Assembly: GCA_973895155.1 (NCBI GenBank)
Contig: OZ316899.1
Span: 10,753,135-10,817,134, forward strand
Origin: Marsupella aquatica
Lineage: Eukaryota; Plantae; Marchantiophyta
Direction of reading: 5' to 3'
Length of the DNA stretch: 64,000 nucleotides
Shown here piece by piece: positions 1 to 56,697 of the stretch. The notes under the pieces are model-generated. The model was given only the letters and a program-made list of their open reading frames with translations, was not told where the DNA came from and did no database searches. Numbering within the stretch: position 1 is the first letter of the stretch; each line of letters opens with the position of its first letter. Both the position numbers and the translations under genes were made by a program.

Positions 1-21
1 CATCCAATTACCTGTTTACAG

Positions 22-466: not shown

Positions 467-1089
467 GTCTGTTCATCTTTTTTGGTAGTTCGATTCCTTT
501 GGACCTTATGTACCCAGTTGGAACCTCTCACGCTCACTTCGAAAGCCAAGTAACCTTGTGTGGAAATGTACCTGTAGTTCTTTTATTTGATTATACCCAG
601 TCAGATGAGCATTTCACCATAATTATCTCTTCTTTGTCAAGATTTCATTTGAACCTTACTTGTTCCTAGGGAAATTGATATCTGACCACAAGTGGATCTG
701 ATGTTTTTAGATCGTAGCAGTTGACCCCAAGGGTTTGTCCTTAACGCAGTTACCAGGCAGATGCTCTTGTGTTGGTCTGATTCAGAGTTGAGAATGCAGC
801 AGGTCAAAACTGGTGCAAATTTATGGATCAAAGGATACCAGGTTTGGAGTCGAGGCAATTCGAGGGCTCTTACACTCCAAGGTGTTGAGGAATTACCGGA
901 TGCTGAGAAGGTTACCATGGGCCCAAAGGTGTAGAAGACAGCTGCTTAATGTAATTATTGTCCACCCCTCATAAAATTATGTCTTGGTGTGTCGTAGGTG
1001 CGTGACATCCTTGTGTGATGCCTAGACAAGAATCACTCGGCCGGTTAAGTGGGTAAAGCAGGAAGGCACCCTAGGAACACCTTAGTATA

Positions 1090-4000
1090 GTGACAAAACA
1101 AGGAAAATATAAACAATTAGGGGCAACCATGGAACCCGGGCAGAGGCCGGAGGTAAGGCTGAGGGTGAAAACCCGATTAGGGTTAGGGCGCGTTAAGCGT
1201 CGGCGGCTAGGAAGGATCAACGGGAAGAAGGACCGGCAGAGGAGAGGGGTAAGGAGCGCTTGCAGGAGATGGTGGCTCATTTGCGAGCACGAACTAGGCA
1301 GACGACTACGGGAGGCCAACTACTGTCAGCTGCTTAGGCAAGCACTCGGGGAGAGAGTAGATACCGACGATCAACCTAAGGAGGGTATGAGCAACGTCAA
1401 TCAAGCGGCACATTTCTGGGGATGCCTGTTCGAACGGGCAACTGAGTACATCAAGACTTACGAGGACGAGGAGTCAGAAAGGGCAGCTCGAGAACGGCAG
1501 GAGCTCGCTCGATTGTGGGAGCTGCAGAAGACGGCTTTCTTAGGAGGCGAACTCATCAAGGACGAGTTCCTGTGGACGCCTACTTCCAATCAACTCGGCG
1601 ATCTTCTGTTTTGCAAGGACAGCGTCGTCGGCATCCGAGAGGCCATCAAGAACTGCAACGACATACACTGGGAATTAAAGGGTAGCACGGAAAGGTGGAC
1701 CCAGGCAACGGTGCTAGGAGAAACCTCCACGGCAGCAGAGATGAAGAGGAAGGGAGCCGTCAACGATGAAGCCACCCCGGCAAAAAGAACGAGGTCGGCG
1801 GCACCAAAGAAGCCAGCCGAGCAGCAGAGCAGGAGGCAGGGAGAAGCCGAAGAGGAGGAGGTCGATCCCATCAAGGCCATTCCAACCAGGGATGACACCT
1901 GGAAGGGCTGGGCGGCAACCCTACCGGTGGAGGTGCAACTACATTTTGCACGGGAGGAGGATGCATGCTTTACGGCCATGCAGACCAAGAAGTACCAAGG
2001 CTTCATGGCCGGATCCGGCTTGGAGGCCTTTGTAAGATTACCATGGCTGAAGCCGGAGGTACCGGAGTCAGACCTATTAGAATTCGTGGGGTCATGGGAA
2101 CCCGAGACCAATTGCACGAGGATATATGGGAAGGATTTCTATCTTACTCCCAAGGTGATTGCCGAAGTGTTTGGCTTGCCGATGGGCAATAAGACCAAAG
2201 TTGATACCAGGAAGACCTTGCCTGACAAGGAGTTCCGGTCGTTCCCCGGGCCATCAACGAAGAATGGCTTCTTCCGGAACACCTGCACCAACCCGCACAT
2301 AGGAGAGATGATCGACTTCTTGCGGGTGACCATGCATTGTAACTTGCCGAGGGCAGAGATCGGCAAGGCACAGGTCTATCTGGCAGAAAGGCCAGACCCA
2401 AGCCGGGACTACATTGGGTACCTCCTCAACCAATTGAAGAAGATCTTAAAGGAGGAGCAGCAGGTAATCGGCATGGGGAGCGTGTCGCGGCTTGGCTATC
2501 ACATGCCGCTGTTGTGCCGGTATGCCAGAGGTCAGACTTTTGCCCCGGTACTTCCCCTGCAGGTAAGGGCACCCGAGGAAGCTCCAACGCCGAGGCCGTT
2601 GGCTGAGAAGCCTCAACCACCTGTTAGTCCTACGATCGAGCAGGTGTTTAGGCCCAGGAAGGAAGACTTGCCGATGCAGCAACCAGGCATGCAGAGTCTG
2701 CTGAAACTACTGGAGAAAGAAAAGAAATCGGCATCGGCAACAACAACGGCAACGGCAACAATGCAGGACACTACTACAGAGGTAGGCCGACACCGGCTCA
2801 CAAGAGAAAACCCCTTTGCTGGAGACAAGGAGAGAATCAGGCCGGAATCCAAGCCAGGTGTTCGAATGTACGTGGGAACCTCAAGCTCCGAATCTGAGGC
2901 AGAATTGCCTGAAGCTCCTACCGAGGAAGAGGAGAGGGAGAAGCCGGAAATCCAAGAGGTAGAGGAGGCAGTGGAGGACTGCAGCCATGATAATTCCGGC
3001 TATGGGTCGGACCATCACGTTCCAGGAGTAAGGACCTGTGGCCAGTTTGTCCCCACACTTCCAAGGGTAGTGCGAGGGGACCCCAACCAGCAGAGTAGCC
3101 CTGAGTCTCCCCCACCAGATGTTGCTCCCCCGAGCTTCGACGGCATAAAACAGACGGTGCAGGAATTTCAGGAGCGAATCAAGCAGGAGGAAGAGGCCGC
3201 CCTGGCTAAGGAAAAGGATTTACCAGGAGGAGATTGGCCGGAGGACATCAGGCGGCTAGCCGAAAAAGGAAGCAAACCTCTAGCCACGATTGAAGAGATC
3301 CGCAGGACGGCTTGGGAGCAGAGGCCACGATGGGCGATGCCGATCACTTCTACTTACTCCACCTACGCTAAGAATAGAGCCATGGAGTATGGTGAGATGT
3401 GTGGGGAACTTGCGCTCGGCATCTTTGGAGAGGAGTTGGAGGTAGGACCCTTTTTCCATAGGGAGCAGTTGGAGAAGCACCAATTAGAAGAAGCGGTGGC
3501 TTTAGAGAGAAGCAAGAAGGACGAGGTCATTCGGCGGCTTAGGAGGATGGGAGCCGAGATTGAAGATCTAAGGGCGGCCAAGAAAGCCCAAGATGAACTG
3601 CGGATTAAACGACATGAGCTGAACATCATGCAGGGGCAGTTGGACGCCGCGCAGGCTGATAATCAGAATATCAAGGATAAACTGACTCAGACGCAGGAAG
3701 AGTTGGCCGACACGATCAAAGAGAGGGAGAAGTGGAAGCAAGAGCTGAAGAATACAGAGGAGGCCCACATAACAGCCAACAGCCGGGCCATGGCGGAGAC
3801 CCAAAGAAAGGAATGGGCGTTGAAAGGGGAGCTCGAGAAAATCCGCGGAGCCCTTGAGCAGAAAGAGGTCGAGTTAGGGAAATCCTATCAAGGGATTATG
3901 GCGCTGCAGCAGGAGCTTGCGTCCCTGACGGCCAGCTTCAAGGCCGACCTAAGGGAGAAGGACGAGATGCTCGAACAGACTTACGCCAAGATGAACCAGA

Positions 4001-4728
4001 TGGAGTCTGTCATCATTGCAGAGCTCGACAAGGAGCTAAGAGCAACCCAGGAGGAGAAGGCTACCTTGAAGAAGGAATTGGAGGAAGCCCACAGGGAGCA
4101 GGAGGAGGCCAAAAACGAGCTGGAGGGGGCACGTAAGGACCTGGATGAAACCCAAGAGGAGTTGGAGGAAATCACGAGGAAGATGGAGAACCTACAGCGG
4201 CGGGCCGACAACCAAACAGAGCGGCTGAAGAAACAAGCCACAGTATTTAAATGCTTAGTTGCAGCAGGTCCATCTCCTGTTGGGACAAACCAGTTACCAG
4301 GGGTGGTAATTGCCGAAGGACAAGCCGCGCCACCTGCACCAGTGCCGGAATTAAGTGGGAAGGGGAAGGGACCAGCTGCCGAGCCACCAACGAAGAAGAA
4401 GCGGAAACCTTCAGGGTCAAGGAGTAATACGACTTCACAGGCCGTGGTGATCAAGGAGGTAGACCCAGCACCGACCCCAGACAGGGTCACGGCTAAGGAT
4501 CCAACTACCCTAGGGGAAGGGGAAGCCGAAGCCGAGGGAGTGGCTGAGGCCGAAGCCGTGGGTATTGCCGAGGCCGGTGTCGAGGCTGAAGCCGAAGGTG
4601 GACCCAGTCAGGCCGAGGGAGAGTTGACTCAGTCAAGGGCAGGTAATCTGTCAGTAGGCGGGCCAACGGCAGTGGCTGAGGAGGAAGTGTTGGGGGCGTC
4701 CATTGAGGATCCACCACCGGTGTCGTGA
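1090..4728 (+). CDS. LTR-encoded protein: plant-transposon/PMD-like domain + Pro/acidic linker + long coiled coil + basic NLS-like patch. Track start is GTG; real start is ATG 1129 or ATG 1387 (1113 aa).
   Basis: 3.6-kb open frame wholly inside the LTR. Motif GLEAFVRLPW...DLLEFVGSW...RIYGKDFYLTPKVIAEVFGLP; heptad-rich E/K/Q region at about 3480-4240; PPTKKKRK. The protein is conserved with synonymous changes in the diverged solo LTRs. Confidence 0.9.
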   Translation: MTKQGKYKQLGATMEPGQRPEVRLRVKTRLGLGRVKRRRLGRINGKKDRQRRGVRSACRRWWLICEHELGRRLREANYCQLLRQALGERVDTDDQPKEGMSNVNQAAHFWGCLFERATEYIKTYEDEESERAARERQELARLWELQKTAFLGGELIKDEFLWTPTSNQLGDLLFCKDSVVGIREAIKNCNDIHWELKGSTERWTQATVLGETSTAAEMKRKGAVNDEATPAKRTRSAAPKKPAEQQSRRQGEAEEEEVDPIKAIPTRDDTWKGWAATLPVEVQLHFAREEDACFTAMQTKKYQGFMAGSGLEAFVRLPWLKPEVPESDLLEFVGSWEPETNCTRIYGKDFYLTPKVIAEVFGLPMGNKTKVDTRKTLPDKEFRSFPGPSTKNGFFRNTCTNPHIGEMIDFLRVTMHCNLPRAEIGKAQVYLAERPDPSRDYIGYLLNQLKKILKEEQQVIGMGSVSRLGYHMPLLCRYARGQTFAPVLPLQVRAPEEAPTPRPLAEKPQPPVSPTIEQVFRPRKEDLPMQQPGMQSLLKLLEKEKKSASATTTATATMQDTTTEVGRHRLTRENPFAGDKERIRPESKPGVRMYVGTSSSESEAELPEAPTEEEEREKPEIQEVEEAVEDCSHDNSGYGSDHHVPGVRTCGQFVPTLPRVVRGDPNQQSSPESPPPDVAPPSFDGIKQTVQEFQERIKQEEEAALAKEKDLPGGDWPEDIRRLAEKGSKPLATIEEIRRTAWEQRPRWAMPITSTYSTYAKNRAMEYGEMCGELALGIFGEELEVGPFFHREQLEKHQLEEAVALERSKKDEVIRRLRRMGAEIEDLRAAKKAQDELRIKRHELNIMQGQLDAAQADNQNIKDKLTQTQEELADTIKEREKWKQELKNTEEAHITANSRAMAETQRKEWALKGELEKIRGALEQKEVELGKSYQGIMALQQELASLTASFKADLREKDEMLEQTYAKMNQMESVIIAELDKELRATQEEKATLKKELEEAHREQEEAKNELEGARKDLDETQEELEEITRKMENLQRRADNQTERLKKQATVFKCLVAAGPSPVGTNQLPGVVIAEGQAAPPAPVPELSGKGKGPAAEPPTKKKRKPSGSRSNTTSQAVVIKEVDPAPTPDRVTAKDPTTLGEGEAEAEGVAEAEAVGIAEAGVEAEAEGGPSQAEGELTQSRAGNLSVGGPTAVAEEEVLGASIEDPPPVS
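1108..1188 (+). promoter_or_regulatory. Candidate TATA box (1108-1113) and telomere/telo-box-like TTAGGGTTAGGG (1177-1188) at the LTR 5' end
   Basis: AAATATAAA and GATTAGGGTTAGGG are retained in all five LTR copies. Function is inferred only. Confidence 0.4.
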
Positions 4729-5643
4729 CGGTGCAAGGGCGCCGTTCCTTTTAGGGAGGGCGGACGTGGAGGGAGGAGGCGTGAGTGGGCAGGGCGGGCG
4801 CGGATCTCCACGTTTAGGATTAGGATCAGAACCAGGAGCGGCCCTGACACTTAGCTTAGTGGGATTGCGGTCCCACTGGTAGGAGCAACACTTGTGCTCC
4901 TGCCTTGCTGTACATAGGTAGATTCGGGCAAGTAGATTACTGTTAAGTAGATTAGGCTTACGATGCAAAGAATGGCGGATCCACTACCAGGATAAGTACC
5001 TGGGCAGCGGGGAGCTCAGGGCCTCTTCTTTAGCAAGTTTTTAGTTTGCACCAGCCGGGCTGGGATCAAGTAGTACGAGAAGCTCTCGGTTAGTCATACA
5101 GTGACCCTTGTGTATATTCATGTTTCCTCATGCCTAAGAGCTGAATAGAGTTGGCCTCACGGCTTAGTTCGCAGAACTTGTGTATGAGATGTACTGTTTG
5201 TATGGCAAGTGCATGGTATGACTCAGTCAGAATGAGTCATTTTGCTATTTGTGTGTCGCATTAACTTGTGTGAAGAGTGCCCACATCAACAGAAGGAAGG
5301 AAAGTAAGCAGGGGAGTGAGAGTTGGATGTGTCGAGCTGAGAGAGGTCTTAGCGGCTTAACCAAGCCTATTGGGGATCATTCCGGCGGCGGAATCCAAAC
5401 ATACCTAACAAGACGGAGGGGAAGACAGGGGAAGGCCTATATTAGGCCGGCTACGTATCTCATGACCCGATGAAGGATCTGTCCAGTATATGTGTGTAAA
5501 ATGTTAATAGTAGTAGTAGAAGGTTAGCAGCGTCCCATGCCGCTAAGCCGCGGAAACGGCCTCGCCAAGCACGAAACCTGCGGGAATCGGCTTGAGCTGG
5601 GGGGTTTCTTGGGTTTAGGGAGCCATGGGACGCACCACATTTT

Positions 5644-5660
5644 TGGCGCTAGATGGAGGG
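5644..5660 (+). promoter_or_regulatory. Primer-binding site TGGCGCTAGATGGAGGG
   Basis: TGG-initiated sequence 4 nt after the LTR terminal CA and 65 nt before the gag ATG. The priming tRNA was not identified. Confidence 0.75.
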
Positions 5661-5708
5661 GGCATTTCTTAAGCCGTGAGATATGAAGTTAGAACGGAAG
5701 CGTAGGTA

Positions 5709-8702
5709 ATGACTGACCTTACGCCGAGGGAAGAAAGAGTGATTCAACGGGAGAGAGCTCGACTGCAGCAGCTCGCCGGGTGGCATGATACACAGCGACT
5801 GAGAGGGGCAGAAAGAGCTGGTAGCTCCGAAACTGGAAGTGGCGTTGAAGAAGACATACCAGAAGAAGAGTCGGTAAGGAGAAGTGAGTCTCCAACCGAC
5901 ATGGGGGAACCAGAGGCACGGCCAGACGAGAGGCCAGGGACCAGATTGAGCCAGCGGTCGCGCATACATTACAAGGCATTTCATGGGAGAGGAGATGAGG
6001 ATCCGGACGAATGGTTGGATGATTTCGAGGGAACCGCTGCAGCAAATGGAGAATCGGCCATCAAGATGCAGATTCTTCCCGGCCTGTTCAAGGGTGAGGC
6101 TAGGCCTTGGTACAGAGCATTAGATGTGGAAGATCAAGCCATCTGGGATATCTTCAAAACACTCTTTGTTAAGGAGTTTCGACCCATTGGAACTTCAGAA
6201 CTAGCAGTGCTGAAGTTGGGACAACTTCGGTTCAAGGAGAACAAATCCTTCAGGAAGTTCTTGCAACGCTTTCAGAAACTGGTAAGACGTACAAAGACCA
6301 ATGCATCTGAAGGTATGCAACTTCAATGGTTGGTGAATGCTTTGCCACAGAAGATGAGTTTTGCAATTAGGAAGGAGAACCCGGAGACTTTAGCCGAAGC
6401 AATTAAGGATATTCAATTATACATTAATGCAGATATCACAAGCCGGAAGAAACAGCTTAAGTCTGAGAGTTCCTCATCAGAGGAGGGATCACCCCATAAG
6501 AAAAAAGATAAGAAGAAGAAACATTCCAAGAAGTCTAGAAGTGATAAGTCAAGCTCGAATAGTGGGAGTAGCAAGAGTGAGTCATCTTCTAGTTCTGAAG
6601 AAGAAAAAACTAGGAAAAGGAAGGGCAGAAGGAGAGGGAAGACGAAAGTCAAGATGGAGGCTAAGCCACCAGATAACATCGTAGCCCTTACCGAGCAACT
6701 TAAGGCTATCATTGCAGAGGTAAAACCAAAGAAGAAGGTAGTACAGGAGGATAGCTCTGTATGGTGTGCCTTATGTTATAAAACCGGACACCATAAAGAT
6801 GCTTGTCCTAAGCTTAATACTAATCATGTTCGGCATGTGGCCGAGATCAGACCATGTCAGGGAGAAGTAGAGTACTTTTTGGGAGATGCCGCTGATAGTG
6901 TTTTCGGCATCAGTGAGACTGGAGCACGAGACCTATCCAACAGACCTGCATCTCTGTGGTCAGGGTTAAGGAACAATCCAGGAGAGATGTATCCTCGGAT
7001 TATTCAGAACCCGTCAGTACCTCCTAGGCCGAATGTGCAAAGATTTGCGGCGTGCTATAATTGTGGTCAACCTGGCCATTTTGCTAGAGAATGCCCGAAT
7101 GCACGCAAACAGGGTGATGGACAACCAGCTCAGCTATGTATGGGATGCCGACAGGAAGGTCATATGCTAGGGCAATGTCCTACTTGGTTGGCAGGCCTGG
7201 CCGCAAATCATAAGCTTTTGCCGATCAAGATCTTACCGCCAGGTACTACCCCCGGAGGAGTTCAAATCAACCACATCGAACTAGGATGGCAAGAGGATGC
7301 CGAGGCAGAGTTCGTACCATCTGATGATGAGGCCGAAGCCCTATCAACCTTCTCAGAGGAGGATTTAGATCATAATTGCTACCGGGTCTCTACTCGATCT
7401 ACCAGAAGGAAGGAAAGGTGGGATGGGCTGGCCAAAAATAAAGGGAAGGTTACGGAGGAAAGGATCGACTCTTCGTCAACATCAACAGAAGGAGAAGGGA
7501 GGGCTCCGGCAATACAGGTAAGCCATGAGCCCACCAGTGAAACCAATCCTTCACAAGATAGCGACTTCAATCGAGATCATCCTAAGTTGTTCTACCCCTC
7601 TGTTACGGCTAGTGTTAAGGAACAACTAAGAGAATTAGAAACCCTGGAGAATACCGAAGCCATTGCCAAGGATGTAAAACGAGCAAAAGCATTGTTTGCT
7701 TCGGAAGACCCAACAGCTGTGGAGACTAGCGTGGCAAAACTGGCCGAATCCAAGACGGAAACACCACTAGAAGAGAAGCCGATTGTTCCCTATGACCTGG
7801 CTAAAGATGTACTAGAATCTAGAGTCTCGGCAACAGTAGGTCAACTATTGAAAAATAGCCCGTACTTCCGGAAGCAATTAAGGAAGGCTATTCTCGGCAA
7901 GCCGAGATTACCCAAGGTAGCAACCAGATCCGACGTACTAATGATAGAAGAAGATCAAGGAGCCCCAGCATTACCATTAATGATTCAAGGAGAATTATTA
8001 CTACGGGTACCCATCGATGGAGGATCAGGGGTATGTATTATGATTGATTCAACAGCAAAAGGGTGGGGTCTAACACCGGAGATGACTGGAAGAGTGTTGA
8101 ACATGGCCAATGGATATCAGGTCATTCCTACGGGAGTGTTAACCGGCATCAAGACAGAGATAGGAGGTATCTTCTTTAGCATTAACTATGTAGTAATGAA
8201 GCCGGTAAATCCTACGTCATTCCGGCTATTGATTGGTAGGCCATGGCTGTACCTAGCCGAGGTAATAGAAGATTGGGGTAAAAAGCAGTTCACTTTCGGG
8301 ACCCCCTCTATCACGGTATCCTGGGACACTAAGGATGACCGTAGGAAAAGCATAAGGGAAGTAGATGGGTACGATAGTGGACTGGAGTCAGCCGATGAAG
8401 TACGTTGGTTAGAATGCTTCACTAACCTAACCGAAGAAGGTGTCTTTGGACCAGAGGTACCCCCCAGCGGATTATGGCAAGAACCAATGGAAGGTGACTT
8501 GGAAGAAGAAGACGAAGAGGTCGAGGACTGCTTTACAATAGAATCCACCTTTTTAGCTGCAATTCCGGAGGAAGTTAAGGATGTAGACCAATTGGATGAA
8601 ACGGCTAAGTGGGGAGCAGTAGCAGGGACAGTGGATTTTCTGCAGGCGTTGTGGCAGAGCCGGCAGGGTCCACAACGCCATCGATCATCGGCAAGGAATT
8701 AA
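5709..8702 (+). CDS. gag: Gag-protease polyprotein
   Basis: Retrotransposon gag core (FHGRGDEDPDEWLDDFE...), a Ser/Lys-rich tract, three CX2CX4HX4C knuckles (CALCYKTGHHKDAC, CYNCGQPGHFAREC, CMGCRQEGHMLGQC), and aspartic protease VPIDGGSG...LLIGRPWL. Confidence 0.93.
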   Translation: MTDLTPREERVIQRERARLQQLAGWHDTQRLRGAERAGSSETGSGVEEDIPEEESVRRSESPTDMGEPEARPDERPGTRLSQRSRIHYKAFHGRGDEDPDEWLDDFEGTAAANGESAIKMQILPGLFKGEARPWYRALDVEDQAIWDIFKTLFVKEFRPIGTSELAVLKLGQLRFKENKSFRKFLQRFQKLVRRTKTNASEGMQLQWLVNALPQKMSFAIRKENPETLAEAIKDIQLYINADITSRKKQLKSESSSSEEGSPHKKKDKKKKHSKKSRSDKSSSNSGSSKSESSSSSEEEKTRKRKGRRRGKTKVKMEAKPPDNIVALTEQLKAIIAEVKPKKKVVQEDSSVWCALCYKTGHHKDACPKLNTNHVRHVAEIRPCQGEVEYFLGDAADSVFGISETGARDLSNRPASLWSGLRNNPGEMYPRIIQNPSVPPRPNVQRFAACYNCGQPGHFARECPNARKQGDGQPAQLCMGCRQEGHMLGQCPTWLAGLAANHKLLPIKILPPGTTPGGVQINHIELGWQEDAEAEFVPSDDEAEALSTFSEEDLDHNCYRVSTRSTRRKERWDGLAKNKGKVTEERIDSSSTSTEGEGRAPAIQVSHEPTSETNPSQDSDFNRDHPKLFYPSVTASVKEQLRELETLENTEAIAKDVKRAKALFASEDPTAVETSVAKLAESKTETPLEEKPIVPYDLAKDVLESRVSATVGQLLKNSPYFRKQLRKAILGKPRLPKVATRSDVLMIEEDQGAPALPLMIQGELLLRVPIDGGSGVCIMIDSTAKGWGLTPEMTGRVLNMANGYQVIPTGVLTGIKTEIGGIFFSINYVVMKPVNPTSFRLLIGRPWLYLAEVIEDWGKKQFTFGTPSITVSWDTKDDRRKSIREVDGYDSGLESADEVRWLECFTNLTEEGVFGPEVPPSGLWQEPMEGDLEEEDEEVEDCFTIESTFLAAIPEEVKDVDQLDETAKWGAVAGTVDFLQALWQSRQGPQRHRSSARN

Positions 8703-11700
8703 ATACCAAGGGATCGGCATACAAGCCAATTACGAGGGCAGAACAAATTGAGGCCCTATTAGAAGCCGAGAGAGCACAGCGGCCTAACTCTCAGGAGCAA
8801 GAGGTGGATGAGATGGACAGACACGATCCAGAGCCAAGGCAGGAAGGGGAGCCGACCACTAATTCAAAACCGAATAGACCGGTAAGGGGACAATCTATGG
8901 ACACCAAGGAAGGGACCGACTCGGCTAGTCCAGCCGAGATCCCAGTTTATGGAGGTATGAGATTAGAGAGACTGGAAGCCGAACTGGACCCGAATTTGAA
9001 GAAGCAGATTAATATGATCCAAGCACGGCAATATCGGAAGCTCGACTTAGGAGAGGGAAGAGAACTGAACTTAGGGAGAAACCTAGCACCTGAGCTCGAG
9101 AAAGAGATCAGTGACTTATTGATTGAATTTCAGGATGTGTTTGCATGGAGTCACCAAGATCTAAAGGGCGTAGATCCAACACTAGGGGAACATCGAATTG
9201 ATCTCATGTTAGGAGCCAAATCATTTCGACAACCAATTCGAAGGATGAACCCGAAGTATTCCCTGCTGGTCAAAACAGAAATCGACAAACTAGTGGAAGC
9301 TGGATTCATCACTCCAGTCCTGCATTCAGACTGGGTGTCTCCAATTGTGATAGTTCCCAAGAAAGCGGGACCCGATGGTAAAACCAAGATCCGGGTTTGT
9401 CAGGATTACAGGAAGCTGAATGAAGCAACATTAAAAGACCATTTTCCTTTACCGTTTACTGATATGGTACTAGACATGGTAGCCAGTCATGAACTATATT
9501 CATTCATGGATGGATACTCTGGTTATAACCAAATCAGGATTCGGCAGGAAGACCAAATCAAGACGGCCTTCATCACGGAATGGGGGATCTATGTCTTCAA
9601 TCGTATGCCGTTTGGACTCTGCAACGCACCAGCTATGTTCCAACGATTAATGGTGAACATTTTTCATGATTACTTGAGAAAGTTCATGGAAATCTTCATT
9701 GATGACTTTGCAGTATTCGGGAAGGCATCGAAACATGCTAAATACCTCAGGAAAACCTTCATGAGATGTAGGGAGGTGGGTCTCAAGTTACACCCAGATA
9801 AATGTTTTTTTGCCGTAACCGAGGGGGTGCTACTAGGTCACAAGGTATCAAGGAAGGGCATTGAGATTGACAAAGGTAAGCTAGCAGTATGGCTAGATAT
9901 CATGCAACCTAAGAACATAAAGGATGTAAGATCCTTCTTGGGATGCATTGGTTACTATCGCCGGTTCATCAAGGATTTTGCCAAGCTAGCTTTACCATTA
10001 ACCAATATGCTCAAGGCAGGAGCAGACTTCGAACCCACACCCGAACGAGTCACAGCGGTGGTAGAATTGAAGCAGATGTTAGTAGAGGCCCCAGTCATGA
10101 TAGCACCGGACTGGAACAAAGATTTTCATGTTTTTGTAGATGTCTCGGGCTTCTGTATTGGCTCAGTACTAAGTCAGTTGGATGAGAAAGGAAGGGACCA
10201 TCCCATATACTTCGCAAGCCGTCAGCTTGCCGATGCCGAACGGAACTACTCTACCACGGAAAGAGAAGCATTAGGAGTCATTTATTCTTGTAAAAAGTTT
10301 AGGCATTATTTACTAGGGTACAAGGTAATCTTTCATACTGATCATGAAAGTTTGAAGTACCTAGTCAATAAGCCGGACCTTACAGGCAGAGTAGCAAGAT
10401 GGATTTTGCTATTACAGGAGTTTGACTATGAGCTGAGGATCAAGCCGGGAAAGTTACATGCCAATGCCGACTTCTTTTCAAGGATCACAGGTAAACCTGC
10501 CACGGATTGCATCGATGATCGATTCCCCGACGAGGAGCTATTCGTTGTGGAAATAGCTGGTACATGGTACCCTGAGATTTTACAATTTCTCAGCACTTCC
10601 AGATTACAGCCAGGATTAAGCCGAGAGCAAGCCGCAGTCTTTGTGCGGAAGGTCAGACAGTATCAGTGCATTAAAGGCATACTGCACAAGCATGGAAACA
10701 ACGGCACGATTCAAAGGTGTTTGGAGAAGAGAGAGGTAAAACGAGTCCTACGGGCCATGCATGGAGAGGAGGCCGGAGGACATTTTGCCCCAGTAACCAC
10801 GTCTAAGAAGATATTAAATGCCGGTTACTGGTGGCCCACCTTGCACAAAGATGTCTATCAGTTTATCAAACAATGCGATCCTTGTCAACGAGCGGGCGGA
10901 CCAAGGGCGTCCACCAGGCATCCACTGCACCCTATTCTACCTCTGGCACCATTCGAGAAGTGGGGTATTGATTACATTGGACCTCTGAAACCACTGACCC
11001 ACCCTCGACGGAACAAGTACATAATCCTGGCTACGGATTATGCAACTAAATGGGTAGAGGCCAGACCAACAACGAAGGATGATGCAATTACTACGGCTAG
11101 ATTCATGTATGAGCAGATCTTCACCAGGTATGGAGCACCCCTAGAATTAGTTAGTGATAGAGGAACCCATTTTTTGAATGATATAATTAGTCGTTTAAAT
11201 GAGCAGTATTTAGTTAAACATAGGCCTACTACTCCCTACCATCCAAAGGCAAACGGGTTGACAGAACGAGCAAACGGAATCATAGGAAAGATATTGAACA
11301 AGACAGTAGCTCAGAACAAACTCGATTGGGATGATAAATTGTTTGCTGCTGTTTTTGCTTACAATCTGGCCTATAAATCCACTACCGGTCATACACCCTT
11401 CTTCTTAACCTTTGGACAAGAAGCCCTGGTACCCACGCAACTTGAGATACCGACATTTCAAGTTACAATTGAGGAAAGAGCCTCAGCGGAGGAGAGCCTA
11501 AAGGAGCGAGAATATAGGTTAGAAGCTTTAGAGGAAGCGAGAATGATTTCAGCCGAGAGAGTAGAATATAGACAGAATATCATGAAGCAGCAGTATGATA
11601 AAAGGTTAAAAGTAGTTAGTATTCATACCGGTGATCTTGTGCTACTTTATGACAGTAGGTATAGTAGGTTTCCAGGGAAGCTTTACACTCGCTGGTTAGG

Positions 11701-11875
11701 ACCCTTTCGAGTAACCATGATGTTCCCCAATGGCTCCGTGCAATTGGCCAACATTACGGGAGAGGTATATCCAGTTCGCATCCATTATGACCGCCTCAAG
11801 AAATACTATATGGACGAAGATGAAGTTGTTCGCGAGGACGCTTCACAATTAAGTGGGGAGCTATGTGATGCCTAG
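8609..11875 (+). CDS. pol: Pol: reverse transcriptase - RNase H - integrase
   Basis: RT (RVCQDYRKLN, MPFGLCNAP, IFIDDF), RNase H (FVDVSG...EREAL...TDHESL) and integrase (HHCC; WGIDYIG, SDRGTHF, NGLTERAN). The stop codon lies inside the 3' LTR. Confidence 0.96.
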   Translation: MGSSSRDSGFSAGVVAEPAGSTTPSIIGKELNTKGSAYKPITRAEQIEALLEAERAQRPNSQEQEVDEMDRHDPEPRQEGEPTTNSKPNRPVRGQSMDTKEGTDSASPAEIPVYGGMRLERLEAELDPNLKKQINMIQARQYRKLDLGEGRELNLGRNLAPELEKEISDLLIEFQDVFAWSHQDLKGVDPTLGEHRIDLMLGAKSFRQPIRRMNPKYSLLVKTEIDKLVEAGFITPVLHSDWVSPIVIVPKKAGPDGKTKIRVCQDYRKLNEATLKDHFPLPFTDMVLDMVASHELYSFMDGYSGYNQIRIRQEDQIKTAFITEWGIYVFNRMPFGLCNAPAMFQRLMVNIFHDYLRKFMEIFIDDFAVFGKASKHAKYLRKTFMRCREVGLKLHPDKCFFAVTEGVLLGHKVSRKGIEIDKGKLAVWLDIMQPKNIKDVRSFLGCIGYYRRFIKDFAKLALPLTNMLKAGADFEPTPERVTAVVELKQMLVEAPVMIAPDWNKDFHVFVDVSGFCIGSVLSQLDEKGRDHPIYFASRQLADAERNYSTTEREALGVIYSCKKFRHYLLGYKVIFHTDHESLKYLVNKPDLTGRVARWILLLQEFDYELRIKPGKLHANADFFSRITGKPATDCIDDRFPDEELFVVEIAGTWYPEILQFLSTSRLQPGLSREQAAVFVRKVRQYQCIKGILHKHGNNGTIQRCLEKREVKRVLRAMHGEEAGGHFAPVTTSKKILNAGYWWPTLHKDVYQFIKQCDPCQRAGGPRASTRHPLHPILPLAPFEKWGIDYIGPLKPLTHPRRNKYIILATDYATKWVEARPTTKDDAITTARFMYEQIFTRYGAPLELVSDRGTHFLNDIISRLNEQYLVKHRPTTPYHPKANGLTERANGIIGKILNKTVAQNKLDWDDKLFAAVFAYNLAYKSTTGHTPFFLTFGQEALVPTQLEIPTFQVTIEERASAEESLKEREYRLEALEEARMISAERVEYRQNIMKQQYDKRLKVVSIHTGDLVLLYDSRYSRFPGKLYTRWLGPFRVTMMFPNGSVQLANITGEVYPVRIHYDRLKKYYMDEDEVVREDASQLSGELCDA
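8633..8692 (+). promoter_or_regulatory. Candidate -1 programmed ribosomal frameshift signal
   Basis: G GAT TTT (8633-8639) is in the gag-PR reading phase. A 5-nt spacer leads to a perfect 10-bp stem, GGCGTTGTGG (8645-8654) / CCACAACGCC (8670-8679). It lies in the 94-nt overlap where pol is in the -1 frame. Confidence 0.7.
11851..11860 (+). promoter_or_regulatory. Polypurine tract AAGTGGGGAG (within pol coding sequence)
   Basis: Purine-rich run separated by CTA from the TG that starts the 3' LTR at 11864. Confidence 0.8.
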
Positions 11876-14800
11876 ACAGGAATCACTCGGCCGGTTAAGT
11901 GGGTAAAGCAGGAAGGCACCCTAGGAACACCTTAGTATAGTGACAAAACAAGGAAAATATAAACAATTAGGGGCAACCATGGAACCCGGGCAGAGGCCGG
12001 AGGTAAGGCTGAGGGTGAAAACCCGATTAGGGTTAGGGCGCGTTAAGCGTCGGCGGCTAGGAAGGATCAACGGGAAGAAGGACCGGCAGAGGAGAGGGGT
12101 AAGGAGCGCTTGCAGGAGATGGTGGCTCATTTGCGAGCACGAACTAGGCAGACGACTACGGGAGGCCAACTACTGTCAGCTGCTTAGGCAAGCACTCGGG
12201 GAGAGAGTAGATACCGACGATCAACCTAAGGAGGGTATGAGCAACGTCAATCAAGCGGCACATTTCTGGGGATGCCTGTTCGAACGGGCAACTGAGTACA
12301 TCAAGACTTACGAGGACGAGGAGTCAGAAAGGGCAGCTCGAGAACGGCAGGAGCTCGCTCGATTGTGGGAGCTGCAGAAGACGGCTTTCTTAGGAGGCGA
12401 ACTCATCAAGGACGAGTTCCTGTGGACGCCTACTTCCAATCAACTCGGCGATCTTCTGTTTTGCAAGGACAGCGTCGTCGGCATCCGAGAGGCCATCAAG
12501 AACTGCAACGACATACACTGGGAATTAAAGGGTAGCACGGAAAGGTGGACCCAGGCAACGGTGCTAGGAGAAACCTCCACGGCAGCAGAGATGAAGAGGA
12601 AGGGAGCCGTCAACGATGAAGCCACCCCGGCAAAAAGAACGAGGTCGGCGGCACCAAAGAAGCCAGCCGAGCAGCAGAGCAGGAGGCAGGGAGAAGCCGA
12701 AGAGGAGGAGGTCGATCCCATCAAGGCCATTCCAACCAGGGATGACACCTGGAAGGGCTGGGCGGCAACCCTACCGGTGGAGGTGCAACTACATTTTGCA
12801 CGGGAGGAGGATGCATGCTTTACGGCCATGCAGACCAAGAAGTACCAAGGCTTCATGGCCGGATCCGGCTTGGAGGCCTTTGTAAGATTACCATGGCTGA
12901 AGCCGGAGGTACCGGAGTCAGACCTATTAGAATTCGTGGGGTCATGGGAACCCGAGACCAATTGCACGAGGATATATGGGAAGGATTTCTATCTTACTCC
13001 CAAGGTGATTGCCGAAGTGTTTGGCTTGCCGATGGGCAATAAGACCAAAGTTGATACCAGGAAGACCTTGCCTGACAAGGAGTTCCGGTCGTTCCCCGGG
13101 CCATCAACGAAGAATGGCTTCTTCCGGAACACCTGCACCAACCCGCACATAGGAGAGATGATCGACTTCTTGCGGGTGACCATGCATTGTAACTTGCCGA
13201 GGGCAGAGATCGGCAAGGCACAGGTCTATCTGGCAGAAAGGCCAGACCCAAGCCGGGACTACATTGGGTACCTCCTCAACCAATTGAAGAAGATCTTAAA
13301 GGAGGAGCAGCAGGTAATCGGCATGGGGAGCGTGTCGCGGCTTGGCTATCACATGCCGCTGTTGTGCCGGTATGCCAGAGGTCAGACTTTTGCCCCGGTA
13401 CTTCCCCTGCAGGTAAGGGCACCCGAGGAAGCTCCAACACCGAGGCCGTTGGCTGAGAAGCCTCAACCACCTGTTAGTCCTACGATCGAGCAGGTGTTTA
13501 GGCCCAGGAAGGAAGACTTGCCGATGCAGCAACCAGGCATGCAGAGTCTGCTGAAACTACTGGAGAAAGAAAAGAAATCGGCATCGGCAACAACAACGGC
13601 AACGGCAACAATGCAGGACACTACTACAGAGGTAGGCCGACACCGGCTCACAAGAGAAAACCCCTTTGCTGGAGACAAGGAGAGAATCAGGCCGGAATCC
13701 AAGCCAGGTGTTCGAATGTACGTGGGAACCTCAAGCTCCGAATCTGAGGCAGAATTGCCTGAAGCTCCTACCGAGGAAGAGGAGAGGGAGAAGCCGGAAA
13801 TCCAAGAGGTAGAGGAGGCAGTGGAGGACTGCAGCCATGATAATTCCGGCTATGGGTCGGACCATCACGTTCCAGGAGTAAGGACCTGTGGCCGGTTTGT
13901 CCCCACACTTCCAAGGGTAGTGCGAGGGGACCCCAACCAGCAGAGTAGCCCTGAGTCTCCCCCACCAGATGTTGCTCCCCCGAGCTTCGACGGCATAAAA
14001 CAGACGGTGCAGGAATTTCAGGAGCGAATCAAGCAGGAGGAAGAGGCCGCCCTGGCTAAGGAAAAGGATTTACCAGGAGGAGATTGGCCGGAGGACATCA
14101 GGCGGCTAGCCGAAAAAGGAAGCAAACCTCTAGCCACGATTGAAGAGATCCGCAGGACGGCTTGGGAGCAGAGGCCACGATGGGCGATGCCGATCACTTC
14201 TACTTACTCCACCTACGCTAAGAATAGAGCCATGGAGTATGGTGAGATGTGTGGGGAACTTGCGCTCGGCATCTTTGGAGAGGAGTTGGAGGTAGGACCC
14301 TTTTTCCATAGGGAGCAGTTGGAGAAGCACCAATTAGAAGAAGCGGTGGCTTTAGAGAGAAGCAAGAAGGACGAGGTCATTCGGCGGCTTAGGAGGATGG
14401 GAGCCGAGATTGAAGATCTAAGGGCGGCCAAGAAAGCCCAAGATGAACTGCGGATTAAACGACATGAGCTGAACATCATGCAGGGGCAGTTGGACGCCGC
14501 GCAGGCTGATAATCAGAATATCAAGGATAAACTGACTCAGACGCAGGAAGAGTTGGCCGACACGATCAAAGAGAGGGAGAAGTGGAAGCAAGAGCTGAAG
14601 AATACAGAGGAGGCCCACATAACAGCCAACAGCCGGGCCATGGCGGAGACCCAAAGAAAGGAATGGGCGTTGAAAGGGGAGCTCGAGAAAATCCGCGGAG
14701 CCCTTGAGCAGAAGGAGGTCGAGTTAGGGAAATCCTATCAAGGGATTATGGCGCTGCAGCAGGAGCTTGCGTCCCTGACGGCCAGCTTCAAGGCCGACCT

Positions 14801-16489
14801 AAGGGAGAAGGACGAGATGCTCGAACAGACTTACACCAAGATGAACCAGATGGAGTCTGTCATCATTGCAGAGCTCGACAAGGAGCTAAGAGCAACCCAG
14901 GAGGAGAAGGCTACCTTGAAGAAGGAATTGGAGGAAGCCCACAGGGAGCAGGAGGAGGCCAAAAACGAGCTGGAGGGGGCACGTAAGGACCTGGATGAAA
15001 CCCAAGAGGAGTTGGAGGAAATCACGAGGAAGATGGAGAACCTACAGCGGCGGGCCGACAACCAAACAGAGCGGCTGAAGAAACAAGCCACAGTATTTAA
15101 ATGCTTAGTTGCAGCAGGTCCATCTCCTGTTGGGACAAACCAGTTACCAGGGGTGGTAATTGCCGAAGGACAAGCCGCGCCACCTGCACCAGTGCCGGAA
15201 TTAAGTGGGAAGGGGAAGGGACCAGCTGCCGAGCCACCAACGAAGAAGAAGCGGAAACCTTCAGGGTCAAGGAGTAATACGACTTCACAGGCCGTGGTGA
15301 TCAAGGAGGTAGACCCAGCACCGACCCCAGACAGGGTCACGGCTAAGGATCCAACTACCCTAGGGGAAGGGGAAGCCGAAGCCGAGGGAGTGGCTGAGGC
15401 CGAAGCCGTGGGTATTGCCGAGGCCGGTGTCGAGGCTGAAGCCGAAGGTGGACCCAGTCAGGCCGAGGGAGAGTTGACTCAGTCAAGGGCAGGTAATCTG
15501 TCAGTAGGCGGGCCAACGGCAGTGGCTGAGGAGGAAGTGTTGGGGGCGTCCATTGAGGATCCACCACCGGTGTCGTGACGGTGCAAGGGCGCCGTTCCTT
15601 TTAGGGAGGGCGGACGTGGAGGGAGGAGGCGTGAGTGGGCAGGGCGGGCGCGGATCTCCACGTTTAGGATTAGGATCAGAACCAGGAGCGGCCCTGACAC
15701 TTAGCTTAGTGGGATTGCGGTCCCACTGGTAGGAGCAACACTTGTGCTCCTGCCTTGCTGTACATAGGTAGATTCGGGCAAGTAGATTACTGTTAAGTAG
15801 ATTAGGCTTACGATGCAAAGAATGGCGGATCCACTACCAGGATAAGTACCTGGGCAGCGGGGAGCTCAGGGCCTCTTCTTTAGCAAGTTTTTAGTTTGCA
15901 CCAGCCGGGCTGGGATCAAGTAGTACGAGAAGCTCTCGGTTAGTCATACAGTGACCCTTGTGTATATTCATGTTTCCTCATGCCTAAGAGCTGAATAGAG
16001 TTGGCCTCACGGCTTAGTTCGCAGAACTTGTGTATGAGATGTACTGTTTGTATGGCAAGTGCATGGTATGACTCAGTCAGAATGAGTCATTTTGCTATTT
16101 GTGTGTCGCATTAACTTGTGTGAAGAGTGCCCACATCAACAGAAGGAAGGAAAGTAAGCAGGGGAGTGAGAGTTGGATGTGTCGAGCTGAGAGAGGTCTT
16201 AGCGGCTTAACCAAGCCTATTGGGGATCATTCCGGCGGCGGAATCCAAACATACCTAACAAGACGGAGGGGAAGACAGGGGAAGGCCTATATTAGGCCGG
16301 CTACGTATCTCATGACCCGATGAAGGATCTGTCCAGTATATGTGTGTAAAATGTTAATAGTAGTAGTAGAAGGTTAGCAGCGTCCCATGCCGCTAAGCCG
16401 CGGAAACGGCCTCGCCAAGCACGAAACCTGCGGGAATCGGCTTGAGCTGGGGGGTTTCTTGGGTTTAGGGAGCCATGGGACGCACCACA
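11864..16489 (+). repeat. 3' LTR of family A (4626 bp)
   Basis: Near-identical to 1014-5639. Five G/A differences found by eye (first-copy positions 1029, 2589, 3044, 3864, 3985). Confidence 0.95.
11940..15578 (+). CDS. Second intact copy of the LTR-encoded protein
   Basis: Same 1212-aa frame as 1090-4728 with two substitutions (Q>R, A>T). Confidence 0.9.
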   Translation: MTKQGKYKQLGATMEPGQRPEVRLRVKTRLGLGRVKRRRLGRINGKKDRQRRGVRSACRRWWLICEHELGRRLREANYCQLLRQALGERVDTDDQPKEGMSNVNQAAHFWGCLFERATEYIKTYEDEESERAARERQELARLWELQKTAFLGGELIKDEFLWTPTSNQLGDLLFCKDSVVGIREAIKNCNDIHWELKGSTERWTQATVLGETSTAAEMKRKGAVNDEATPAKRTRSAAPKKPAEQQSRRQGEAEEEEVDPIKAIPTRDDTWKGWAATLPVEVQLHFAREEDACFTAMQTKKYQGFMAGSGLEAFVRLPWLKPEVPESDLLEFVGSWEPETNCTRIYGKDFYLTPKVIAEVFGLPMGNKTKVDTRKTLPDKEFRSFPGPSTKNGFFRNTCTNPHIGEMIDFLRVTMHCNLPRAEIGKAQVYLAERPDPSRDYIGYLLNQLKKILKEEQQVIGMGSVSRLGYHMPLLCRYARGQTFAPVLPLQVRAPEEAPTPRPLAEKPQPPVSPTIEQVFRPRKEDLPMQQPGMQSLLKLLEKEKKSASATTTATATMQDTTTEVGRHRLTRENPFAGDKERIRPESKPGVRMYVGTSSSESEAELPEAPTEEEEREKPEIQEVEEAVEDCSHDNSGYGSDHHVPGVRTCGRFVPTLPRVVRGDPNQQSSPESPPPDVAPPSFDGIKQTVQEFQERIKQEEEAALAKEKDLPGGDWPEDIRRLAEKGSKPLATIEEIRRTAWEQRPRWAMPITSTYSTYAKNRAMEYGEMCGELALGIFGEELEVGPFFHREQLEKHQLEEAVALERSKKDEVIRRLRRMGAEIEDLRAAKKAQDELRIKRHELNIMQGQLDAAQADNQNIKDKLTQTQEELADTIKEREKWKQELKNTEEAHITANSRAMAETQRKEWALKGELEKIRGALEQKEVELGKSYQGIMALQQELASLTASFKADLREKDEMLEQTYTKMNQMESVIIAELDKELRATQEEKATLKKELEEAHREQEEAKNELEGARKDLDETQEELEEITRKMENLQRRADNQTERLKKQATVFKCLVAAGPSPVGTNQLPGVVIAEGQAAPPAPVPELSGKGKGPAAEPPTKKKRKPSGSRSNTTSQAVVIKEVDPAPTPDRVTAKDPTTLGEGEAEAEGVAEAEAVGIAEAGVEAEAEGGPSQAEGELTQSRAGNLSVGGPTAVAEEEVLGASIEDPPPVS

Positions 16490-17293
16490 TTTTTGGCGCT
16501 AGATGGAGGGGGCATTTCTTAAGCCGTGAGATATGAAGTTAGAACGGAAGCGTAGGTAATGACTGACTTTACGCCGAGGGAAGAAAGAGTGATTCAACGG
16601 GAGAGAGCTCGACTGCAGCAGCTCGCCGGGTGGCATGATACACAGCGACTGAGAGGGGCAGAAAGAGCTGGTAGCTCCAAAACTGGAAGTGGCGTTGAAG
16701 AAGACATACCAGAAGAAGAGTCGGTAAGGAGAAGTGAGTCTCCAACCGACATGGGGGAACCAGAGGCACGGCCAGACGAGAGGCCAGGGACCAGATTGAG
16801 CCAGCGGTCGCGCATACATTACAAGGCATTTCATGGGAGAGGAGATGAGGATCCGGACGAATGGTTGGATGATTTCGAGGGAACCGCTGCAGCAAATGGA
16901 GAATCGGCCATCAAGATGCAGATTCTTCCCGGCCTGTTCAAGGGTGAGGCTAGGCCTTGGTACAGAGCATTAGATGTGGAAGATCAAGCCATCTGGGATA
17001 TCTTCAAAACACTCTTTGTTAAGGAGTTTCGACCCATTGGAACTTCAGAACTAGCAGTGCTGAAGTTGGGACAACTTCGGTTCAAGGAGAACAAATCCTT
17101 CAGGAAGTTCTTGCAACGCTTTTAGAAACTGGTAAGACGTACAAAGACCAATGCATCTGAAGGTATGCAACTTCAATGGTTGGTGAATGCTTTGCCACAG
17201 AAGATGAGTTTTGCAATTAGGAAGGAGAACCCGGAGACTTTAGCCGAAGCAATTAAGGATATTCAATTATACATTAATGCAGATATCACAAGC
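16490..17293 (+). pseudogene. Second, truncated internal region (PBS + 5' gag) continuing after the 3' LTR
   Basis: Copy of 5640-6443 with CAG>TAG at 17123-17125. Identity ends abruptly at 17293. Confidence 0.92.
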
Positions 17294-37263: not shown

Positions 37264-37549
37264 AATTCAGGTGAGTCTTTGGAGTTTTTCTTGCACAACC
37301 CTGCATTTATTTTCCTAAATGAAACACACTAGTCCTACCTTGGGACTTGAGGGTACCAAGTCACAGGTCTGAAATGAGTGATGATGTCATGGTAGACAAA
37401 GTACATTTGACTTGCTTCCCCCTTGACTGAACTTCAATCCACCTATTTGGAAGTACAGGAAACTTGGGAGATACTGTCGAGGCAGGTACATGAAACTCGG
37501 GAGAAACTTGGGAATTTTAGAGGCCTAATTCAAAGCTCTCAAATTGTTT

Positions 37550-56243: not shown

Positions 56244-56697
56244 AGCTCTAATCTATTCTGTCGAGTGCGCAAAGAAGTGGGGAGGCTGATAGAATCAATG
56301 GAGGAGGCAGGAATTTAGTCAAGAGTGAGCGCCCGAGTCTACATTGTCTTCTTTTCAAGTCGCGCTCTTCTTCTGTTGTGGAGTCCCGTTAAAACTAGCC
56401 GTAAAATGTCGCGGTCACTGGTCGCCAACTCGTAAGGCATAACTCTTAGTCCTAACTCGTAAACCCGTAAATCGTAAACTAGTAAACTAGTAAACTCGTA
56501 AATGGAGTCTACTTGTAAACCCGTAAATTGTCAACTCGTAAACTTGTAAACAGGAGTTTACTTGCAAACTTAAACTTGAGAACCCGTAACTTGTAGACAG
56601 AATGCTATCTCCGCTATGTTAGCAATAATTATAGTCTAAACACCATAAAAAAATTAAAAAAATTCAGTTTCTTCCTACTTTTGGAATTACCCACTAC

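Follow-up and report, generated by a model that had tools for sequence, protein, structure and literature searches.

A gypsy element with a gene inside its LTR

The window, which is the whole 64,000-nt stretch of Marsupella aquatica DNA analysed here, contains a Ty3/gypsy LTR retrotransposon in which LTRs, a primer-binding site (PBS), a polypurine tract (PPT), gag, and the order RT-RH-INT are all present. An accessory gene sits entirely inside the LTR on the sense strand, hence each element has two copies of it. The features of the element are as follows.

1014..5639, + strand: 5' LTR (LTR1), 4,626 bp, TG...CA with an imperfect terminal inverted repeat; the accessory gene lies entirely within it
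1105..1113, + strand: TATA-like box, AAAATATAAA, identical in 4/4 aligned copies; candidate promoter of the accessory gene
1175..1188, + strand: telomere-like block, GATTAGGGTTAGGG, probably within the 5' UTR; identical in 4/4 aligned copies
1387..4728, + strand: accessory gene, 1,113 aa from a conserved ATG; frame open from 1075
4729..5639, + strand: conserved non-coding end of the LTR, a GC-rich block followed by a TGTA/T-rich region
5640..5660, + strand: PBS, TGGCGCTAGATGGAGGG; found directly after LTR1 and LTR2, missing behind the solo LTRs
5706..8702, + strand: gag-protease ORF with Pfam matches Retrotrans_gag and zf-CCHC
8609..11875, + strand: RT-RNaseH-integrase ORF in a frame overlapping gag-protease; stop codon within LTR2
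11851..11863, + strand: PPT in the final pol codons, immediately 5' of LTR2
11864..16489, + strand: second LTR (LTR2), 4,626 bp, with an intact second copy of the accessory gene at 12237-15578
16490..17293, + strand: stub of another internal region, 804 bp long, from a tandem unit that shares LTR2; its gag stops early

LTR1 and LTR2 show 5 differences, 2 of them amino-acid changing, and the TG/CA ends of LTR1 are identical to those of LTR2 and both solo LTRs. The 5 inter-LTR differences and the very deep cover in sequencing runs X1 and X2 indicate a young and abundant family. Sequencing cover from outside runs rises and falls at the LTR ends. The PBS is presumably tRNA-Asn-like. With the PPT placed where pol ends, any sequence 3' of pol is duplicated in the two LTRs, which would put the gene in U3. 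The retroviral accessory genes MMTV sag and HIV nef are also located in U3 and copied into both LTRs; their proteins are unrelated to the plant-element protein, far shorter, and from animal retroviruses. The non-coding end of the LTR had 81–91% identity to the solo LTRs per 200-bp window, with indels of frameshift size, and likely comprises the genomic promoter, R, and U5. A 4.6-kb mini-element with short LTRs was considered and excluded, as the unit has no internal terminal repeat. Pfam searches of pol for a chromodomain and a second RNase H (aRH) matched neither. With a 5-bp duplication and neither aRH nor a chromodomain, the element is more consistent with Athila than with Phygy (REXdb).

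The true start of the accessory gene is most likely the ATG at 1387, judging from how the frame evolves. Codons 1–86 from the ATG at 1129 evolve neutrally and hold 8–12 frameshifts per kb compared with 0.5–1.2 elsewhere, and ATG 1129 was rejected as the start. Homologs begin just before the same F-W motif, which also supports ATG 1387, and the ATG context is conserved in 4/4 aligned copies. The dN/dS against three decayed copies was 0.08–0.13 in the core (upper 95% bounds 0.13–0.23), 0.14–0.20 in the N-terminal domain, and 0.20–0.21 in the coil; the two other reading frames gave 0.98 and 1.12. The gene is under purifying selection over its length, far beyond what a chance ORF would show.

Further copies and two related families were found in the window.

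26876..31573, + strand: solo LTR from a sister subfamily with a broken gene, flanked by GAACA/AAACA
31964..34420, - strand: broken gene of a distant second family, with N-domain, basic patch, core, and coil all shared; a TATAAA lies at 34527
41632..44283, + strand: truncated LTR copy, gene broken
49647..54315, + strand: solo LTR with a broken gene and a CGGGG/CGGGG target duplication
55150..56440, - strand: distant third family, broken core homolog (HMM iE 1.4e-5) just behind the PPT and TG of a second gypsy element

The five LTR copies and the two related families are clustered in 64 kb of repeats, one being nested inside another repeat. The second family was detected by tblastn (E 6e-15) and by HMMs built from outside homologs (iE 1e-53 and 5e-10), and its TATA is approximately 100 nt upstream of the gene start. 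The position of the third-family homolog behind PPT and TG indicates that it probably also lies in a 3' LTR. C-to-T differences between copies were about twice as frequent in CG (0.16–0.21) as in CHH (0.09–0.10), indicating that family members have been methylated. The CpG observed/expected ratio was 0.58–0.79 in the accessory-gene family compared with 0.42 in an older gypsy element and 0.34 at 21–26 kb, which is explained by age.

Domains and homologs of the accessory protein

Five features were annotated along the protein.

1387..1728, + strand: conserved N-terminal domain; HMM of outside homologs (n=7) iE 5e-6; 0 Pfam matches
1744..1794, + strand: bipartite NLS-like basic patch, KRK...PAKRTR (pattern match)
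1888..2550, + strand: globular core with a predicted VANC21-like fold; AF2 pLDDT 88.2, pTM 0.85
3451..4269, + strand: coiled-coil region, heptad-rich and proline-free over 273 aa (residues 775-1047 from ATG 1129)
4393..4407, + strand: C-terminal NLS-like patch, KKKRK

A preliminary description of this DNA had proposed a nuclear protein with a globular domain, a coiled coil of about 250 aa, and basic patches within 1900-4420. All motifs it quoted exist in the ORF at 1075-4728 (+ strand), with GLEAFVRLPW at 2017-2046, and the coil agrees with the 273-aa proline-free stretch. KKKRK falls within the described interval and KRK...PAKRTR just outside it; a basic patch also stands upstream of the core in P0057 and in the 33.5-kb copy. 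The second conserved domain, at the N-terminus, had been overlooked. The description had also denied a signal peptide, a transmembrane stretch, and an Env identity, and this was borne out: a simple Kyte-Doolittle window test found no membrane or signal stretch, the highest 19-residue mean was 0.95, the N-terminal end is polar when translation starts at ATG 1387, and only 1/22 homologs of at least 400 aa reaches 1.6.

The named homologs are from a liverwort. Word-based protein searches with the core returned nothing, relatives were found only by full HMMER search, and two metagenome scans gave no loci. The core is net basic in 20 of the 26 near-complete sequences, among which an acidic catalytic triad is not conserved; conserved basic columns fall at core positions of about 100-160 and 173. 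Pfam searches of the accessory protein gave 0 matches to PF10536 (PMD), PF20167 (Transposase_32), PF04195 (Transposase_28), PF03078, PF09331 (DUF1985), and DUF287, and no match to an RNA-binding family. None of the 49 homologs matched PMD or DUF1985 by Pfam, and PF20167 appeared below threshold in two (E 0.006 and 0.06; 13.7 and 17 bits against a cut-off of 45). The language-model leads (Atlas) were DUF1985 (0.88) and PMD (0.88) for the accessory protein and Transposase_32 (0.84) and ATHILA (0.83) for one homolog; all are below 0.9 and serve as leads only.

The predicted core fold and known systems

The core was modelled by AF2 with 67 aligned sequences (pLDDT 88); only 3 sequences gave pLDDT 37. 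In the VIA structure search, VANC21-DNA was the sole chain of 48,161 with Z of at least 2 (Z 8.4; 210/227 residues; 6% identity), and a second VIA comparison with VANC21 gave Z 8.8, although Z 7–8 is common for models with no true match and this match is distant and made on a predicted model. Both runs aligned 207–210 residues at an rmsd of 4.0–4.3, the matched entries being 9LNK and 9LNJ (VANC21 residues 285-533). The same pair was the top Foldseek match, with E 0.37 and TM 0.46, compared with at most 0.19 for the others among the matches listed. Sequence-profile searches of the PDB with the core gave chance matches only and no VANC21, so the link to VANC21 is structural only. No fusion-protein fold was present among the PDB matches of the core.

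The core of the accessory protein is thus predicted to have the VANC21 fold, with a mostly basic surface sequence. On the strength of the model, a VANC21-like fold points towards a DNA-binding protein, either a chromatin or a transcription factor. A shared fold by itself shows no function. Kinship with the plant-transposon PMD/VANC group is supported because the core matches VANC21 alone among PDB representatives and because the PMD-C/MAIN fold is reported to match VANC in two papers, one being bioRxiv 10.1101/2024.09.27.615353. For the earlier proposal of a PMD/Transposase_32-like domain, to be checked by predicted structure and Foldseek, the fold comparison, in which VANC21 came out on top, gives indirect support for a PMD fold through the published PMD-VANC similarity; Pfam gave no direct membership in PF10536, PF20167, or PF04195.

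VANC21 of Arabidopsis VANDAL21 is a DUF1985-bearing anti-silencer, and VANDAL DNA transposons are an established case of sequence-specific anti-silencing. VANC, which binds short motifs, strips methylation from its own family (PMC5735166). The liverwort protein resembles VANC21 in the modelled core fold over 210 residues and in being a transposon-encoded accessory protein with a coiled coil and variable linkers. It differs in sequence, in having no DUF1985 or DUF287 match, and in being carried by a gypsy LTR retrotransposon rather than a VANDAL/MuDR (Mutator-like) DNA transposon; moreover, VANC is described as dicot-specific. VANC targets are tandem motif arrays, whereas no significant short-motif array was found in the non-coding parts of this LTR (best TTAGG, 13 against 3.8 expected, a maximum reached by 6% of shuffles). 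The third family has 8-bp arrays (P 0.005–0.015 for 6- to 8-mers), in regions picked after the arrays were seen.

Among PMD proteins (PF10536; gypsy PMD-A, Ogre extra ORFs, and host MAIN/MAIL1/MAIL2), a VANC fold has been reported, and PMD-A is gypsy-borne and present in 57% of Ogre elements. The MAIN/MAIL PMD-C proteins oppose Polycomb and resemble the DUF1985 of VANC (same bioRxiv paper). VANC and the Athila domain have been modelled as coiled-coil oligomers (PMC13547354). The extra ORFs with Athila ORF1 (PF03078) or Transposase_32 (PF20167) share with the present element a non-chromovirus gypsy host with no aRH, the 5-bp target duplication, the weak sequence echo in 2/49 homologs, and the top named Atlas clusters. 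Unlike them, the present protein stays below the curated cut-off, is encoded behind the PPT within U3, and has an extra N-domain, a 270-aa coil, and no membrane helix. The Retand/Grande/RIRE2 extra ORFs (Transposase_28, PF04195, plus an SMC-like coil) likewise pair a globular domain with a long coil, and the Grande product is nuclear with its own promoter. These ORFs run antisense in the interval separating pol from the 3' LTR and belong to Tat elements that have aRH, whereas the present protein is sense-strand, has no PF04195 match, and accompanies a pol with no second RNase H.

Proposed function and alternatives

We propose that the LTR-encoded VANC21-like protein is imported into the nucleus, attaches to the DNA of its own element, and preserves the element's transcriptional competence in the face of host silencing; we put this at an even chance. 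The TATA promoter at the left end of the LTR would produce a separate mRNA ending in the LTR's own poly(A) region, and the NLS patches would import the protein. The coil may oligomerise it to give several DNA-binding heads, which may recognise short motifs in the non-coding LTR parts, while the N-domain or acidic linkers may recruit or block host chromatin factors of DNA methylation or Polycomb. The missing motif array, the past methylation of family members, and the broken gene in every non-paired LTR copy of the window speak against anti-silencing. MAIN/MAIL1, with the same fold, act in transposon silencing (PMC5418596), so the effect on the element may have either sign.

Other explanations were weighed against anti-silencing. 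A DNA- or chromatin-binding protein that serves integration, escorting the cDNA-integrase complex into the nucleus or tethering it to chosen chromatin in place of the absent chromodomain, is unlikely. The pol without chromodomain, the NLS patches with the long coil, and the crowding of copies in repeats fit this role, and nuclear import has been proposed for other extra ORFs (PMC7264820). However, such clustering is also expected from selection alone, the gene is separate from pol and carries promoter-like elements of its own, and the protein's sole structural relative is an anti-silencer. Ranked after this, and also unlikely, is a self-limiting or host-directed regulator that acts to repress the family it belongs to, or to titrate away host partners of MAIN/MAIL-type proteins, instead of binding the element and activating it. 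The fold is shared by MAIN and MAIL1, which are required for transposon silencing, and the LTR has no motif array; yet a young, abundant family suits a factor that helps spread, and MAIL proteins were later interpreted as anti-Polycomb activators.

We consider a post-transcriptional role (in binding or exporting RNA, as a scaffold of particles, or in suppressing RNA silencing) improbable: the matched fold is that of a protein crystallised on DNA and no RNA-binding family matched, although basic patches bind RNA too, the chain is mostly coil and acidic linker, and a similar suggestion exists for sunflower Tekay extra ORFs (PMC11728184). An Env-like envelope or movement protein is very improbable and largely refuted by the hydropathy values and the missing fusion-protein fold. 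In its favour, env likewise stands behind pol in sense orientation, and a transmembrane helix occurs in some of the Athila extra ORFs that have Transposase_32 (same source). The least probable explanation, which the data refute for both the ORF and the ends of the LTR, is that the 4.6-kb repeat is a tandem duplication or assembly artefact rather than an LTR, or the ORF a chance frame. The repeat extends 804 bp beyond the LTR and no target duplication flanks the full element, but two solo copies share the TG and CA ends and 5-bp flanking duplications, PPT precedes and PBS follows the LTR, outside-run cover steps at its ends, and purifying selection on the ORF is strong.

The anti-silencing reading has a bolder form, possible but doubtful: liverwort gypsy LTRs would carry a sequence-specific anti-silencer of VANC/PMD fold, new solo LTRs would be autonomous helpers keeping the family unsilenced in trans, and the fold would be a retroelement invention predating flowering plants and ancestral to VANC and host MAIN/MAIL, in place of VANC arising late by capture of MAIN. 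Plant LTR retrotransposons with PMD- or Athila-domain extra ORFs are already known, and the role of extra ORFs is an open question (PMC7264820; PMC12844716). Exact-phrase searches of open-access text found no description of an ORF inside a plant LTR or of a VANC-fold protein from a bryophyte retroelement. A young intact element with a predicted VANC21-fold extra protein, and Marchantia as a possible test host, make extra-ORF function directly testable. The model would place the VANC21 fold outside angiosperms, which bears on the host or gypsy origin of PMD, left undecided in PMC5418596, and on the proposed derivation of VANC from MAIN (PMC13547354). With the gene within the LTR, solo LTRs, usually seen as non-coding remnants, begin as complete protein-coding cassettes. 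Until its decay, a fresh solo LTR would work as a helper cassette complete in itself; the gene is broken in 3/3 non-paired LTR copies of the window.

The LTR retrotransposon and its accessory gene

The Ty3/gypsy element and related copies in the window are as follows.

1014-5639 and 11864-16489: LTR pair (LTR1, LTR2), sharing their ends, as both start TGTGATGCC and finish GCACCACA
1387-4728 (+): accessory gene in LTR1; second copy at 12237-15578
26876-31573 and 49647-54315: solo LTR copies
41632-44283: further LTR copy, truncated
31964-34420 (-): second family
55150-56440 (-): third family, beside a second gypsy element

The segment 1014-6443 showed 99.85% identity to its repeat at 11864-17293. 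The primer-binding site lies directly after the LTR and the purine tract ahead of LTR2; the last pol codons hold this tract, and the pol stop codon falls within LTR2. Pfam placed gag-protease and RT-RNaseH-integrase in the internal region, with no match there to a chromodomain or second RNase H. Internal sequence resumes for 804 bp beyond LTR2, which makes the structure a tandem unit whose two parts have LTR2 in common. The LTR ends recur in the two solo copies (flanks GAACA/AAACA at 26876-31573 and CGGGG/CGGGG at 49647-54315), and the empty site of the first was seen in contigs from outside sequencing runs. Read cover in these runs, a depth that is not copy number, rose at the left LTR end and fell at the right. 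A search for a short terminal repeat within the 4.6-kb LTR unit found none. At 17279-17303, where the internal-region stub stops, a 13-bp duplication suggests a repair junction. A short repeat with TG...CA-like ends (660-1011), covered by many outside contigs, adjoins LTR1 on the left and is possibly another solo LTR.

The accessory gene is real. LTR1 and LTR2 each carry a 1,217-codon open frame, with four coding differences between them, two of which change an amino acid. Against the three decayed copies, dN/dS was 0.08–0.13 for the core (globular domain, 1888-2550), 0.14–0.20 for the N-domain (1387-1728), 0.20–0.21 for the coil (3451-4269) and at most 0.44 for the tail, and every upper bound stayed under 0.7; these are simple Nei-Gojobori counts, and the comparisons are not independent, as LTR1 is common to all three. 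The remaining two reading frames gave dN/dS of about 1. The LTR-borne protein is most likely 1,113 aa, because codons 1-86 counted from ATG 1129 are neutral with many frameshifts, resembling the non-coding LTR end, and ATG 1387 with its context is identical in 4/4 copies. The TATA-like box (1105-1113) and a telomere-like block (1175-1188) are also unchanged in all four.

Genes in U3 are known in animal retroviruses. Our narrow literature search found no report of an ORF inside a plant LTR, nor of VANC together with bryophyte retrotransposons. Passages of reviews locate extra ORFs in the internal region (PMC7264820, PMC11963269). A long-LTR paper states, in the relevant part, that replication enzymes are not LTR-coded, and in its element the extra ORF precedes gag (PMC3485330). 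The text available from a liverwort genome paper does not mention an LTR-internal ORF (PMC12885004), and part of another paper poses as an unanswered question whether any LTR elements code for VANC-like factors (PMC12844716).

Architecture, relatives and fold of the protein

The domain order is N-domain, bipartite NLS-like patch, globular core, proline-/acid-rich linker, coil (273 aa without proline), KKKRK and acidic tail. A full HMMER search found 49 relatives at E ≤ 0.001, and long relatives (e.g., homologs P0057 and P0062) keep the same order. The organism was named for 3 of 10 clusters looked up, the liverwort Calypogeia fissa, which also supplied 10/10 matches of a later profile search. 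On this basis a liverwort or another bryophyte is the probable host. Profiles built from outside sequences only recovered the core and N-domain in the LTR gene and in the second family (32-34.4 kb), and the core in the third family (55.8-56.1 kb). The third-family homolog is probably also inside an LTR, because it lies directly behind the purine tract and TG closing another gypsy pol; no 5′ LTR of that element turned up in the window.

A net basic core was seen in 20 of 26 near-complete sequences. The core has a variable basic loop ahead of a conserved NG[YF]xxxxC motif; its alignment contains no conserved acidic triad. In the second family (32920-33567, -), core cover in outside runs X1 and X2 was 12,000–56,000 vs 400–4,000 in most neighbouring linker bins, which, with depth as a rough guide, suggests that the core is the best-conserved part there too. 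The homolog P0048 has the end of a DDE_Tnp_4/Harbinger-type nuclease ahead of its core, so DNA transposons may also carry the domain, or the record may be chimeric.

The preliminary description called the domain PMD/Transposase_32-like and proposed an AlphaFold and Foldseek comparison. The AlphaFold2 core model (67 sequences) had pLDDT 88.2 and pTM 0.85, and Foldseek's top PDB match was VANC21 on DNA (9LNJ; E 0.37, probability 0.57, TM 0.46), the other matches listed having TM ≤ 0.19. An independent VIA-align run over 48,161 chains returned one chain at Z ≥ 2, again VANC21 (9LNK; Z 8.4, rmsd 4.3, 210 aligned, 6% identity), and a second look gave Z 8.8. Taken singly, the scores of both programs are not high; the match is persuasive because the whole domain is covered, it has no close competitor and VANC had been named beforehand in the preliminary description. 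As modelled, the core is a distant structural relative, in a new place and lineage. In the Pfam search the protein matched no plant-transposon family, Transposase_32 matched weakly in 2/49 relatives, and PMD, DUF1985, ATHILA and Transposase_28 in 0/49. Atlas ranked unnamed Streptophyta clusters ahead of DUF1985 and PMD (both 0.88), and gave Transposase_32 and ATHILA for a homolog; all named matches were below 0.9 and were counted as leads. By the defining sequence tests of each, the protein falls outside VANC, PMD and Transposase_32.

Possible action on the LTR

VANC21 is described, in the sections concerned, as binding a 9-base motif and removing methylation from its own family (PMC5735166). 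Parts of two further reports present coiled-coil oligomer models for VANC and an Athila domain (PMC13547354), and a likeness of MAIN/MAIL PMD-C domains to VANC's DUF1985 with opposition to Polycomb (bioRxiv 10.1101/2024.09.27.615353). We infer, with belief and doubt evenly balanced, that the LTR protein may be a nuclear oligomeric DNA-binding factor that keeps its own LTR active. The putative factor would enter the nucleus, oligomerise and bind DNA, and once bound would act on its own LTR, so that the element stays active.

Several results count against this action. No significant short-motif array was found in the non-coding parts of the LTR. Mutations among the LTR copies are CG-biased, so copies were methylated in the past, and the accessory gene is broken in 3/3 older copies. 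The silencing role of MAIN/MAIL1, as given in part of PMC5418596, is likewise set against the activating reading. Integration targeting, self-repression of the element family and an RNA-level role are less likely alternatives. An Env-like protein is very unlikely, in agreement with the preliminary description, and a simple hydropathy window test also showed no membrane stretch (peak hydropathy 0.95).

TTAGG occurs at 6.6–10.7 per kb in the LTR non-coding parts (1014-1386, 4729-5639) vs 1.1–1.2 in the ORF and internal region, counted on the + strand throughout, an excess that is marginal vs shuffles. An 8-bp AACTCGTA-like motif forms arrays (56454-56551, 63044-63162, 48539-48618) in the non-coding DNA at either end of the second gypsy element, beside its broken core homolog, and in one isolated place. 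These arrays look like those targeted by VANC and are a candidate binding site for the third-family protein.

Other features in the window

34689-35973: repeat of the coil end from the second family (35514-35973; 70% identity with 31964-32420); after it, on the minus strand, comes a TGTA-rich stretch finishing GGGTTACA, possibly an LTR end
3-480 (+): host gene exons with a DANHCPG motif, presumably an SNM1/DCLRE1-type metallo-beta-lactamase nuclease; the raw frame had no Pfam match
18129-20000 (+): what we take from motifs to be a broken LINE-type reverse transcriptase region
36212-36405: tandem array, 13 copies of 15 bp
36500-39660: after this array, a presumed Harbinger-like nuclease remnant, with an opposite-strand acidic/coiled-coil ORF (177-bp duplication) without clear Pfam family
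46250-46900 (+): presumably a Copia-like gag remnant, by motif
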